A stretch of 15,772 nt of DNA from Gemmatimonadota bacterium (GTDB lineage Bacteria; Gemmatimonadota; Gemmatimonadetes; Palauibacterales; Palauibacteraceae): NCBI GenBank assembly GCA_039588275.1, contig JBDHAC010000074.1, positions 1 through 15,772 of the forward strand. Reading direction: 5' to 3'. The notes below the pieces were generated by a model, which was given only the letters and a program-made list of their open reading frames with translations, did no database searches and was not told the DNA's origin. Made by a program: the position numbers and the translations under genes. Below, piece after piece: positions 334 through 8,664 of this stretch (its first letter is position 1; every line of letters starts with the position of its first letter).

Positions 334-406
334 AGCTGACGGTGGGACTCGAACCCACAACCTCCGGATTACAAATCCGACGCTCTACCGATTGAGCTAC
401 GCCAGC
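334..406 (-). tRNA. tRNA-Thr (anticodon TGT)
   Basis: Reverse complement GCTGGCGTAGCTCAATCGGTAGAGCGTCGGATTTGTAATCCGGAGGTTGTGGGTTCGAGTCCCACCGTCAGCT. Acceptor GCTGGCG/CGTCAGC, anticodon loop TTTGTAA, T-arm GTGGG-TTCGAGT-CCCAC. CCA is not encoded. Confidence 0.97.
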
Positions 407-5334: not shown

Positions 5335-6717
5335 TCACGTCCCAGCTGGTATGCGTCCCTCCACCCAGTCGATGAGCCCTTGCGCGTCTTCCTCGTGTTG
5401 CGCTTCTGCAACGATGCGCAGGATCGGCTCGGTTCCGGAAGGCCGAACGTGGACCCAGCGCCCGTCCGGCCATTCGAGGCGAAGCCCGTCGGTCGTATCC
5501 GCCCCCACCGCTGGGGACGCCGCGTCGCGGATTCCCTCAAGGAGCTGTCGGACTTCCAGCGATCCTCTATCGATCTTCCGTTTCGCTATGTGGTATCTTG
5601 GAAGCGGCTGCAAGCGCGCGCTCAACCCATCCGTTTCGGCGGATAGCCACTGCAAGATGAGCGCCGCGGCGAGCGGCGCATCCCGTGTCATGTGCAACGC
5701 TGGATAAATCACGCCACCGTTGCCTTCTCCGCCGATTACGGCTCCCACTTCGACCATCTTTGCGACGACGTTCGCTTCACCGACCGGAGCGCGGTGAAAC
5801 GGGACGCCGAAGCGCCGGGTCGCGTCTTCGATAGACCGGCTCGAGGAGAGATTCGTCACGACCGGACCGGGCTCGCGTGCGAGCACGAGCTCGACGGCCA
5901 GCGTGAGGGTCCAATCCTCACCGATCGGGCGCCCCTCTTCGTCGACGATCGCGAGTCGATCGACGTCGGGATCCACGGCCAGCCCGACGTCGGCTCCCTC
6001 GGCTATGACCCGACTCCCGAGATTGGTCAGGTGCTCGGGAATCGGTTCCGGATTGCGAGGAAACCGTCCGTCCGACTCCATGTCTACACCGATGACCCGG
6101 CAACCGAGCCGCTCCAGCAGTTGGGGCATGATCCGGCCCCCGGCTCCGCGAACGCAGTCGACCACGACGCGAAAGGACCTCGCCGCGATCCGGTCGGGGT
6201 CCACGATATCGAGTTCCACGATGCGGTCGACGTGCGTCCGGATCGCATCTGCCGCCGCTGATCGCGTGCCCACCGCTGACCAATCGGAGTAGTCCGGGCC
6301 GCGTTCGTAGATGCGCTGTACTTCGGCACCCTCCTCCGGGTGGAGGAAGCGGCCGTCGCTGCCGGCGAGCTTCAATCCGTTCCAAGCAGCCGGGTTGTGC
6401 GAGGCGGTCACGAGGAGTCCGCCGATTGCCCGAGGAGAGTCCTCGACGGCCAGCAGTCCGGTCGGGGTCGGGACGATCCCGAGATCTCGGACATCCAACC
6501 CGACCGCGCGTAGCCCCGCGCAGACCGCATCGACCAGCAGCTCGCCCGACGTACGACTGTCGCGGCCAACGAAGACCACCGCATCCCGTTCGAGCGGGGC
6601 GCCGCCGCGCATGTACGTCCCGAACGCCGCGCCGTAGCGCGCGGCCACTTCGGGTGTGAGCCCTTCGCCCACGATGCCACGGATTCCGGATGCAGAGACG
6701 ATGAGGGATTCGGGCAC
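5335..6717 (-). CDS. glmM: Phosphoglucosamine mutase (alpha-D-phosphohexomutase family)
   Basis: 460 aa. SGIRG, GRDSR, catalytic TASHNP, metal loop DPDVDR, GGEGNGG, RPSGTEP. Lies 12 nt upstream of glmS, which favours GlmM over PMM/PGM. Confidence 0.88.
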   Translation of the reverse strand: MPESLIVSASGIRGIVGEGLTPEVAARYGAAFGTYMRGGAPLERDAVVFVGRDSRTSGELLVDAVCAGLRAVGLDVRDLGIVPTPTGLLAVEDSPRAIGGLLVTASHNPAAWNGLKLAGSDGRFLHPEEGAEVQRIYERGPDYSDWSAVGTRSAAADAIRTHVDRIVELDIVDPDRIAARSFRVVVDCVRGAGGRIMPQLLERLGCRVIGVDMESDGRFPRNPEPIPEHLTNLGSRVIAEGADVGLAVDPDVDRLAIVDEEGRPIGEDWTLTLAVELVLAREPGPVVTNLSSSRSIEDATRRFGVPFHRAPVGEANVVAKMVEVGAVIGGEGNGGVIYPALHMTRDAPLAAALILQWLSAETDGLSARLQPLPRYHIAKRKIDRGSLEVRQLLEGIRDAASPAVGADTTDGLRLEWPDGRWVHVRPSGTEPILRIVAEAQHEEDAQGLIDWVEGRIPAGT

Positions 6718-6750: not shown

Positions 6751-6809
6751 ACCGCAGGGCGGGCATCGGCTCGCCCGCGGTCGACTCGGCGCGCATCGGC
6801 TGCACCGAG
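6751..6809. repeat. Two tandem imperfect hairpins with identical GCATCGGCT core (30-nt period)
   Basis: Hairpin 1 (6751-6781): ACCGC-a-GGGCGGGC-ATCG-GCTCGCCC-GCGGT. Hairpin 2 (6785-6809): CTCGGCGC-GC-ATCG-GC-t-GCACCGAG. The shared 9-mer is at 6763-6771 and 6793-6801. Confidence 0.65.
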
Positions 6810-6841
6810 CGCCCGACAGTAGGTACCCGTCGAGGCCAGCG

Positions 6842-7315
6842 TCAACCGTGGTCGGAGGGGGCGCGGCGCGGCCGGGCTGGCTTCGTCCGATCCGAGATCG
6901 AAGTCGCGGGCGCCGCGCGAAGCGTGGCATCGTCCTGCGTCGTCGTGTCGAGGCCGAGCGAAGCGAGACGGCGGCGAACGCGGCGAACGTCGCGCGGGCT
7001 CACCGTCACGGCCGCGAAGGCATCGCTCCAGCGCACGACCCGTCCTGCCGAGCCCAATAGCTCCTCCACCGACGTGCGGGCCCGGCGGGCGAGATCCGCC
7101 ACCGCCAGGCCGGAGGGAGTCCGGACCAGCAAGTGCACCCGATCCGGCAGGACACACGTCTCGATCGGCTCCGCCCCGAGCCAGCGACAAGAGGCCATGA
7201 GGTGGCTTTCGATCGAGGCCCGTCGCGCGGAGCTCAACACGCGGGCACGGGCCAGCGTCGTCCACGCCAGGTGAACGTAGAGTCGGTGCGGTGTGCGATC
7301 CGAGGGCATACACAC
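6842..7315 (-). CDS. IS200/IS605 TnpA (Y1 HUH transposase)-like protein, catalytic residues substituted
   Basis: 157 aa. Motif order matches the Y1_Tnp fold: LYVHLAWTT..R (cf. yHivw.tKyR), VLPDRVHLLVRTP (cf. pDHvHll...pp), WSDAFAAVTVS (cf. W..gyfa.tVs), followed by a helix that lacks the YxxxQ. GGAG RBS lies 9 nt upstream of GTG 7315; an alternative ATG is at 7309. Confidence 0.75.
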   Translation of the reverse strand: MCMPSDRTPHRLYVHLAWTTLARARVLSSARRASIESHLMASCRWLGAEPIETCVLPDRVHLLVRTPSGLAVADLARRARTSVEELLGSAGRVVRWSDAFAAVTVSPRDVRRVRRRLASLGLDTTTQDDATLRAAPATSISDRTKPARPRRAPSDHG

Positions 7316-7444
7316 TCTGATCTACTCCACCCGGTCATCCGCCTGTCATGGCGTCGCTGCCCTGATTCGCCGCGCCGCTTCGCGAACCTGCGTGGGGGAA
7401 GGTCATCGACCCCGCCTGGGCCGTCGCGCACCCCGACGGGCAGC

Positions 7445-7500: not shown

Positions 7501-8664
7501 GTGAGCGAATCCACGAAGTACGGGTTCGGGACGACGGCGATACACGCCGGACAGGAGCCCGACCCGACGACGGGGGCGATCATGCCCCCCATCTATCAGA
7601 CCTCCACGTATGTGCAGGATGCGGTCGGGGCGCCCAGGCTCGGGTACGACTACGCGCGGGTCAGCAATCCTACCCGCGACGCGCTGCAAGCCAACCTGGC
7701 CGCCCTCGAAGGTGGAAGGCACGGGATCGCCTTCGCGTCTGGCCTGGCGGCCATCGAGGCGCTCCTCAAGGCGACCCTCAACGAGGGCGACCACCTGGTG
7801 TGCGGGGCGGACGTGTACGGCGGGGTCGACCGGATGCTACGGCTTGTGTGGTCGCGGTTCGGTCTGTCTTTCGACTTCGTGGACACATCGGACCTCGCGG
7901 CGCTCGAGGCCGCCGTTCGTCCCGAGACGCGGCTGATCCATGTGGAAACCCCGAGCAATCCGATGATGATGGTCACCGACATCGCCGCGTGCGCTGAAAT
8001 CGCGAAACGGAGCGATTGCCTGCTCTCGGTGGACAACACCTTTGCGACGCCGTACCTGCAACGTCCGCTCGAGTTCGGAGCGGACATCGTGATGCACTCC
8101 ACGACGAAGTTCTTGAACGGGCACAGCGACATGATCGGGGGTGTCCTGATCACGGACTCCGATGAGCTGAACGAGCAGCTGCGCTTTCAGCAAAAGACGA
8201 CGGGGGCGGTGCCCGGGCCGCTCGATTGCTGGCTCGTCCTGCGCGGCACCAAGACCCTGCACCTCCGCATGCGGGCTCACTGCGAGAACGCGCGGGCCGT
8301 CGCAGCGCTGCTCGACGCCCACCCCGAGGTCGAGGGCACGAATTACCCCGGACTGCCGGCTCACCCGCAGCATGCGCTCGCCACACGTCAGATGCACGAT
8401 TACGGATCCATGGTGAGCTTCGAGCTGGGGTCGGCGGAGCGCGCGCATCGGTTCGCGGGCTCCACGAAGATCTTCGCGCTGGCGGAGAGCCTCGGCGGCG
8501 TGGAGAGCCTCGTGTCGGTGCCCGCGGTGATGACGCACGCGTCGGTCCCGGAGGAGAAACGGCGAGAGATCGGGCTCACCCCCGGACTCGTGCGCCTTTC
8601 GGTCGGCATCGAAGATTCTGATGATCTCACCCAGGACCTGGAGGCCGCGCTGACAGGACTTTGA
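7501..8664 (+). CDS. Cystathionine gamma-synthase/gamma-lyase family PLP enzyme (Cys/Met metabolism)
   Basis: 387 aa. TTAIHAGQEPDPTTGAIMPPIYQTSTY, YARVSNPTR, FASGLAA, ETPSNP, VDNTFATP, PLP-lysine motif HSTTKFLNGHSD, AESLGGVESL, LVRLSVGIED. MetB versus cystathionine gamma-lyase cannot be resolved by eye. Confidence 0.93.
   Translation: MSESTKYGFGTTAIHAGQEPDPTTGAIMPPIYQTSTYVQDAVGAPRLGYDYARVSNPTRDALQANLAALEGGRHGIAFASGLAAIEALLKATLNEGDHLVCGADVYGGVDRMLRLVWSRFGLSFDFVDTSDLAALEAAVRPETRLIHVETPSNPMMMVTDIAACAEIAKRSDCLLSVDNTFATPYLQRPLEFGADIVMHSTTKFLNGHSDMIGGVLITDSDELNEQLRFQQKTTGAVPGPLDCWLVLRGTKTLHLRMRAHCENARAVAALLDAHPEVEGTNYPGLPAHPQHALATRQMHDYGSMVSFELGSAERAHRFAGSTKIFALAESLGGVESLVSVPAVMTHASVPEEKRREIGLTPGLVRLSVGIEDSDDLTQDLEAALTGL

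Follow-up and report, generated by a model that had tools for sequence, protein, structure and literature searches.

A dead Y1 transposase homologue, apparently domesticated, and a candidate competence regulon in Gemmatimonadota

Between a cystathionine gamma-synthase-type gene (cgs) and glmM, the stretch of DNA analysed here (the window, 15,772 nucleotides in all) carries a reading frame for a protein that resembles the Y1 transposases of the IS200 type and has lost the residues with which such enzymes cut. Is this the remnant of a decaying insertion sequence, or was the gene kept for another task, and if so, for which? The first-pass annotation of the window had favoured the second answer and had proposed a hairpin-binding protein that regulates amino-sugar synthesis. 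The features concerned are these:

6842..7309, minus strand: dead Y1 (HUH) nuclease gene, 155 aa from ATG 7309 or 157 aa from GTG 7315
6977..7288, minus strand: PF01797 Y1_Tnp core, the sole PF01797 match in the genome (86% complete)
7133..7144, minus strand: D58-R59-V60-H61, the former HUH motif, with the first His replaced by Arg (Arg at 64/66 orthologous loci)
6956..6970, minus strand: R116...L120, the former catalytic Tyr and metal-ligand Gln positions, by alignment
5335..6717, minus strand: glmM (TIGR03990 above cut-off), the fixed downstream neighbour, given as context
7501..8664, plus strand: cgs (NF005871 above cut-off), the fixed divergent neighbour, given as context

The gene had been described as an uninterrupted frame of 157 aa, on the strand of glmM and 124 nt upstream of it, with no tnpB or other IS gene nearby. 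All of this holds: the frame runs over 6842-7315 on the minus strand from a GTG start, and the window's ORF list contains no such genes. Residues are numbered here in that 157-aa frame, of which approximately residues 9-120 form the folded core, followed by a variable, poorly conserved tail. The protein scores 33 bits against PF01797 (cut-off 23), 31 bits against the IS200 equivalog NF033573 (cut-off 55) and 14.8 bits against the RAYT model NF047646 (cut-off 80). An AlphaFold2 model built from a 40-sequence alignment (mean pLDDT 89.9) is closest to Sulfolobus TnpA 2ec2 (Z 15.0, rmsd 2.2, 103 residues aligned) and IS608 TnpA 2vhg (Z 14.9, rmsd 2.4, 104 aligned), followed by RAYT 4er8 (Z 10.1, rmsd 3.6, 119 aligned), with the structural background at Z 8.4 and less; a search of the ESM Atlas returned Y1_Tnp clusters only. 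The proposed Y1/HUH fold is thus supported by profile and structure alike.

The catalytic core of Y1 enzymes, as described by Quentin et al. (2018, PMC6006769), consists of two His, a Tyr and a Gln. In the window's protein the motif reads D58-R59-V60-H61 with CGG for R59, the sole Tyr is Y13, and R116 and L120 occupy the columns of the catalytic Tyr and the Gln, as manual alignment had indicated; profile alignment to ISDra2 TnpA agrees and places R59 on the first HUH His. The loss is conserved among the 66 orthologous loci described below. The first His position holds Arg in 64, Gly in one and His in one, the Tyr position holds Arg in 57 and Tyr in none, Gln is found at its position in two, and the second His is kept in 43, so that the first His is gone from 65/66 and the Tyr from 66/66; in intact Gemmatimonadota relatives all four residues are kept (24/24). 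One orthologue (G007) retains DHVH and the Gln, with Phe for Tyr. Together with P0066 it forms a pair in which the first His and the Gln are kept and Phe or Arg stands for Tyr, a possible intermediate or reversion.

A sequencing error at R59 had been considered unlikely, on the ground that CGG is two changes from a His codon. The conclusion stands and the ground does not: His to Arg needs one change (CAC to CGC), and the better argument is that every one of the six Arg codons occurs at this position among the orthologues. A contig from a public run is likewise identical to window positions 6755-7321, with zero differences, and may come from the same sample. Sequencing error and pseudogene were ruled out by the ortholog family, the six Arg codons and this contig.

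Other residues are conserved. R111 and R115 are each present in 57/66 loci, and several residues that vary in the intact sisters are fixed in the dead clade: E36 (65/66), C43 (61), R44 (63), E49 (61), P50 (65), G91 (61) and A101 (64). The core stays basic, and the net charge is +10, a little more than the +8 of intact relatives. H10 and Y13 are conserved in 64/66 and 65/66 loci; Y13 appears to be structural, since the intact sisters have Tyr or Phe there. The helix-C motif K80-G81-x-S83, nearly invariant in the intact sisters (24, 22 and 23 of 24), is eroded in the dead clade, where K80 remains in 50/66 and S83 in 41/66 loci and G81 is not kept; the window's own protein lacks the motif. According to PMC3479197, basic residues of helices B and C hold the RAYT hairpin, with helix C in the minor groove. 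Specific hairpin recognition is therefore doubtful, and the hairpin-binding part of the earlier proposal is left uncertain.

The family to which the protein belongs is compact. A protein search gave 50 matches, 49 of which (with the window's protein) form a tight group with invariant D-R-x-H, followed after a gap by one intact enzyme; the relatives' named records are Gemmatimonadota MAGs. A 40-member profile found a match in 65 of 114 genomes of the window's family, a group of uncultured bacteria, and in 0/16 genomes of the other family of the same order (f2), and scores above 140 bits were confined to the window's family among 301 phylum genomes, a sample that includes one unpublished genome on which no result depends. 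Strong matches number one per positive genome. The exception is G336 with two copies, 80% identical and both at the usual locus, which probably represent two strains in one bin. All 66 strong loci were taken for the residue, neighbour and repeat counts, which are counts over kindred genomes and hence not independent. Both neighbours, cgs and glmM, are present at 60/66 loci; of the remaining six, five are cut off by the end of a contig, and in G007 a different gene stands upstream in place of cgs. With glmM downstream in 64/66 loci, the synteny expected of a domesticated gene is conserved, and across the 65 positive genomes the gene is essentially single-copy.

The selective regime was assessed with codon models, omega being profiled on a grid with kappa fixed at 2. 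The best omega lies at 0.05-0.10 in all four clades of 8-14 sequences, with an omega of 1 worse by 250-406 lnL units, which indicates purifying selection; for glmM and cgs the optimum is 0.05, at the lower end of the grid. Pairwise NG86 ratios are higher for distant pairs (medians 0.66 and 0.47, vs 0.34 and 0.28 for glmM), values distorted by saturation at high GC3, and fall to medians of 0.34 (6 pairs) and 0.12 (14 pairs) for close pairs, where the closest bin gives the Y1 gene somewhat higher values than glmM and cgs. No stop codons interrupt the core at the orthologous loci. At 55 loci both neighbours were of sufficient length; for these, the tree of the gene has 35/52 splits in common with the glmM+cgs tree, about as many as glmM and cgs share with each other (34/52; shuffled mean 0.2), and its 20 well-supported splits are free of conflict with well-supported splits of the host. 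Descent has thus been congruent with the host.

The remaining 49 of the 114 family genomes gave no match, and those tested keep the regulon repeat described below. At the gene-less loci of five genomes examined, cgs and glmM lie back to back (5/5), and a remnant of an insertion sequence was sought there and found at none (0/5, best domain E 0.075). In a four-gene host tree of 31 genomes, match-less genomes fall in five places among the carriers, in a tree whose deep supports are weak and where two of the five placements are single draft genomes. This distribution suggests presence in the ancestor of the family followed by repeated loss, and such loss in several lineages marks the gene as accessory, like radC. 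With every trait of a domesticated transposase in place, namely single copy, fixed locus, purifying selection and vertical descent, the gene is almost certainly catalytically dead and domesticated rather than decaying, as had been proposed.

As to its source, the closest relatives that are still intact have DH[VI]H or a variant of it, a W, and Y---Q--HH, the last being the signature of TnpA-Y1 subclass 1.2 in the classification of Quentin et al. (PMC6006769), who left out proteins without the motifs as being probably without function. A tree of 226 sequences unites the 66 loci with two dead-type proteins from databases in a single clade of 68 (support 0.967), next to which stand one intact protein and then 22 of 24 intact Gemmatimonadota loci (supports 0.87 and 0.81). 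The dead clade is thus nested beside intact Y---Q--H[H] proteins, in a tree that contained no reference 1.2 sequences from Quentin et al. The intact relatives reach up to six per genome in another family of the class, and at the 23 intact Gemmatimonadota loci checked the neighbours are unrelated to both cgs and glmM. Of the intact loci, 18/24 are flanked by REP-like hairpins whose loop reads CT-N-AAG, a count that is partly circular because the pattern was chosen by eye from these loci; the same hairpin occurs beside the dead gene at 0/66 loci. Since the sisters are intact, hairpin-flanked and unfixed, the dead clade appears to go back to a mobile or semi-mobile hairpin-associated nuclease that was fixed and disarmed once. 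The sisters' hairpins are themselves perfect, REP-like and often adjoin GCCGAG/CTCGGC, an apparent REP-nuclease system.

The search also brought up proteins of 270-320 aa with two tandem Y1 domains, i.e., single-chain pseudo-dimers, in several of which one half apparently lacks the Tyr or a His (P0073, P0077, P0078, P0082, P0085, P0089, P0091, P0092, P0095, P0100, P0113, P0123, P0137, P0140, P0175 and P0185). P0098 and P0134, one of them from a Polyangiaceae MAG, make up another degenerate Y1 group, lacking both HUH and Tyr, apparently an independent inactivation.

What the gene was kept for is suggested by the DNA upstream of it:

7334..7349, minus strand: direct repeat ATGAC-N6-ATGAC (family consensus WTGAS-N6-WTGAS, 11-bp period)
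7319..7324, minus strand: inferred -10-like hexamer, 9 nt after the repeat, at offsets where A and T are enriched in the family

Under a loose pattern, WTGAS-N6-WTGAS stands upstream of 62/66 loci, compared with a mean of 1.56 and a maximum of 6 in dinucleotide shuffles; one of the repeat-less loci has only 80 nt of upstream DNA, and of periods 8-15 only 11 is enriched. An in-frame start follows 36-38 nt after the first base of the repeat in 57/66 loci, a spacing that suggests an mRNA with no leader or almost none, so the promoter would have its half-sites near -37 and -26. ATG 7309 (155 aa) is likely the true start. The ribosome-binding site that had been proposed did not survive this comparison: the GGAG in question sits between the conserved repeat and the -10-like hexamer and, with the repeat at 7349-7334, 40 nt from ATG 7309, probably lies outside the transcript. 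An 11-bp repeat ending about 10 nt before a -10 box presumably resembles PhoB/OmpR- or SARP-type activator sites.

The same repeat recurs elsewhere in the genome. In G000 a scan returned recA, radC, two recQ-type genes and comM/yifB among many unrelated matches. An orthologue test in 30 genomes mixing carriers, non-carriers and outgroups, with upstream windows of 160-600 nt (wider for comEA and dprA), found the repeat within the order upstream of recA in 28/28, radC in 19/26 and comM in 22/24 loci (two loci without upstream DNA dropped). For comEA, in a partly different set of 30 genomes, 26 of them with a comEA match, it was present in 24/25 within the order, and in 4/5 in a small set; comEC gave 3/5. 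Outside the order it was absent from recA (0/2), radC (0/2), comM (0/2) and comEA (0/1). Only 4/30 dprA loci (two in f2), 0/5 comF and 4/23 pilin loci carry it, genes that may sit inside operons. As controls, lexA gave 0/30, glmM 3/64, cgs 1/62 and the crudely called genes of G000 79/3177. With a -10 term added, the pattern occurs 12-44 times per genome in five genomes and 1-2 times when reversed; G343 has 27 sites, including recA, YraN (PF02021) and a GspH/pilin gene. Many genome-wide matches of the pattern precede PIN toxins, metabolic genes or non-coding DNA. Downstream of comEA in G000, on the same strand, lie pil-like genes, which we take to be pilB/pilT/pilC, and N-methyl pilins. The repeat further precedes a signal peptidase I gene in G000 (C44:25047-25062) and in G343; in G000 it is followed by a sigma70-like gene, possibly a regulatory link. 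The regulon appears order-wide, spanning competence and recombination genes that are often leaderless.

Membership of the Y1 gene in this regulon is very probable, and the regulon itself is likely to be that of competence. In the ComX regulon comEA, comEC, radC, dprA and recA form the competence set (PMC6560143), comM and comF are described as being under TfoX/QstR (PMC6237807, PMC4630621), and YraN is described as acting with ComM on the transformation D-loop (PMC13663708). The likeness to the regulons of ComX in S. pneumoniae and TfoX/QstR in V. cholerae thus lies in the shared genes comEA, comEC, comM, radC, recA and yraN (PMC6560143, PMC6237807), and the difference in the motif, here a direct repeat of 11-bp period at about -37 and -26, often before leaderless genes. 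Shared regulation need not imply a role, as radC is competence-induced and dispensable for transformation (PMC6237807, PMC4630621). The recA gene keeps its repeat in 14/14 in-order genomes where the Y1 gene was not found, so the Y1 protein is a target and not the regulator; the candidate that it regulates itself was rejected on the same evidence. The repeat is a putative site of a competence-type activator. It is distinct from a TTCG-N7-TTCG repeat found at lexA and at the proximal recA promoter, a candidate Gemmatimonadota LexA box, which stands upstream of the Y1 gene in only 3/66 loci, so that membership in the LexA (SOS) regulon was rejected. By eye, TTCG-N7-TTCG units are repeated over the lexA promoter in 30 genomes, including two outside the order; a CGAA-N7-CGAA unit lies at the proximal recA promoter, and recA of the window's family seems to have two promoters. 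A WYL/PafBC-type activator (PF13280) was not found in G000 (86% complete). The WTGAS repeat apparently marks an undescribed, LexA-independent regulon of competence type.

These observations bear directly on the proposal of the first-pass annotation, in which the gene heads a glmM-glmS run and its product acts on adjacent hairpins to regulate amino-sugar synthesis. Two further features of the window are relevant:

6816..6845, minus strand: probable glmM promoter by eye, TTGACG (overlapping the TGA stop of the Y1 gene), 18 nt, TACTGT
161-243 and 334-406, minus strand: tRNA genes downstream of cysS

Regulation of glmM, or competence-driven read-through into it, is very unlikely. It would fit the fixed position upstream of glmM, the lack of a terminator-like site between the two genes in the window, which makes read-through possible, and a spacer that folds better than its shuffles (z -2.62); the region upstream of the Y1 gene folds no better than shuffles. 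Yet cgs and glmM are neighbours with or without the Y1 gene, and the synteny is best read as an insertion site. The gene need not head the run either, for glmM apparently has its own sigma70-like promoter over the Y1 stop codon: a TTGA..TA promoter-like site precedes glmM in 42/64 loci under a loose pattern, the stop codon is part of TTGA[CGT] in 26/66, and similar sites are visible in gene-less loci, although the window's own site falls below the threshold of a strict promoter scan. No conserved hairpin lies beside the Y1 gene, an Rfam search of the window found the two tRNAs only, with no RNA element next to the gene, and by eye the spacers show no conservation across genera. The repeat, moreover, links the gene to recA, comEA, comM and radC, not to glmM or cgs. 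In one genus (g13) the glmM leader, between the Y1 gene and glmM, contains a conserved 17-nt element (GCGGCCCACCCTTTGCA).

Within the regulon itself several other roles are conceivable. Unlikely is a protein that works mainly as a protein-binding adaptor or inhibitor (of RecA, ComM, RecQ, YraN or a regulator) through its new surface; the newly fixed residues and the eroded hairpin motif speak for it, while Arg at both catalytic positions, in a core that is still basic, fits phosphate binding. That the repeat instead defines a LexA-independent DNA-damage regulon, with the protein binding single strands at damaged forks rather than incoming DNA, is unlikely as well. In G000 the repeat is found at recA, at two genes for recQ-type helicases and, on the opposite strand, at an addB-like gene; in other genomes it precedes genes for an Fpg-type glycosylase and for a helicase; and recA seems to have two promoters, as in PafBC-regulated mycobacteria. 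Against this, comEA and comEC are uptake genes without a repair role, and no WYL domain was found in G000. DNA damage induces competence in several species, and the two states may here be one and the same. Very unlikely is a dominant-negative guard that binds or dimerises with active Y1 transposases, or binds hairpin ends, on incoming single-stranded DNA and so blocks insertion. IS200/605 TnpA is described as an obligate dimer acting on single strands (PMC6006769, PMC3479197), the 114 family genomes have no strong PF01797 match (best non-orthologue E 6.7e-13), and another family of the class has up to six intact relatives per genome; but gene-less genomes are also without Y1 elements (0/5, and 0/16 in f2), metagenome-assembled genomes often drop insertion sequences, and the hairpin-binding residues are eroded. 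Decay, or an enzyme still active through other residues such as Y13 and H61, is highly improbable. The lineage-wide losses, the conserved Y13 and H10, and the DHVH and Gln of G007 would be in keeping with it; decay is largely refuted by the selection, single copy, congruent tree and intact core, and activity is countered by the replacement of H61 in 23/66 loci and the structural nature of Y13.

The preferred reading, to which we assign a probability of about 0.5, is that the protein is a non-cutting accessory, switched on with competence, that binds incoming single-stranded DNA. Because its upstream repeat is that of DNA-uptake and recombination genes, it likely handles incoming DNA rather than controlling a cell-wall gene. 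Y1 enzymes act on single-stranded DNA (PMC6006769), and transforming DNA is described as entering the cell single-stranded (PMC13663708); that the protein acts by binding such DNA is reasonably likely. Less structured single strands, or a protein partner at the E36/C43-R44/E49-P50 patch, would be more likely ligands than a specific hairpin. A hairpin-flanked, subclass-1.2-like nuclease gene would have landed between cgs and glmM in the family ancestor, lost its hairpins and catalytic residues, come under the order's pre-existing repeat-type promoter, and later been lost in several lineages. Switched on together with natural competence, its product would use the Arg at the former His and Tyr positions, with R111 and R115, to hold the phosphate backbone, with no need of metal, in the groove of the former active site, and may shield, sort or hand over incoming single strands during RecA/ComM-dependent integration; the newly conserved patch (E36, C43-R44-R45, E49-P50) might serve for contact with a partner.

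Comparison with known systems places the family between categories. It has the fold and an alignable sequence of IS200/IS605 TnpA (subclass 1.1; IS608 2vhg, ISDra2 2xm3, Sulfolobus 2ec2) and differs in lacking HUH, Tyr, tnpB, subterminal hairpins and multiple copies. Its nearest intact relatives have the signature, short core and low copy number described for subclass 1.2 (PMC6006769), whereas the dead protein, strictly at one locus, lacks the catalytic H, Y, Q and the HH tail, and the intact Gemmatimonadota sisters depart from that subclass in being hairpin-flanked, REP being listed as absent in its published description (PMC6006769). Like RAYT/TnpA-REP of E. coli (4er8), it is a domesticated Y1 protein of the same fold at a fixed chromosomal site; RAYTs, in contrast, are described as catalytically active with REPs (PMC8266576, PMC3479197), and REP-like hairpins are missing here (0/66). 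It likewise lacks the Y---NP motif and flanking REPs and stays below the NF047646 cut-off, the traits of RAYT class 2. Some databases label the protein RayT; for the dead Y1 family both this label and 'transposase' are wrong.

TldR proteins are nuclease-dead TnpB exapted as guide-RNA-using repressors. The dead Y1 protein resembles them in the catalytic death and reuse of an IS200/605-family protein, and differs in deriving from TnpA, with no RNA found in the window. It shares fixation with RAYT and death with TldR, and belongs to none of IS200 TnpA, subclass 1.2 or RAYT.

To our knowledge, the only tamed Y1 transposases described so far are active REP nucleases, and in the open-access literature searched no description was found of a dead Y1 family, of a dead Y1 protein in competence, of the WTGAS motif or of a transposase-derived member of a competence regulon. 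What is added here is a clade of dead Y1 proteins under strong selection together with a pointer to function, the promoter repeat common to comEA, comM, radC and recA. That a disarmed single-strand transposase, its active site refilled with arginine, has become a dedicated part of transformation, expressed from a direct-repeat promoter that defines the first Gemmatimonadota competence regulon, has in our estimate slightly less than even odds. If true, it would add a transposase-derived component to natural transformation, give dead Y1 proteins a testable job, and provide a candidate competence regulon and its motif for an abundant, almost uncultured phylum.
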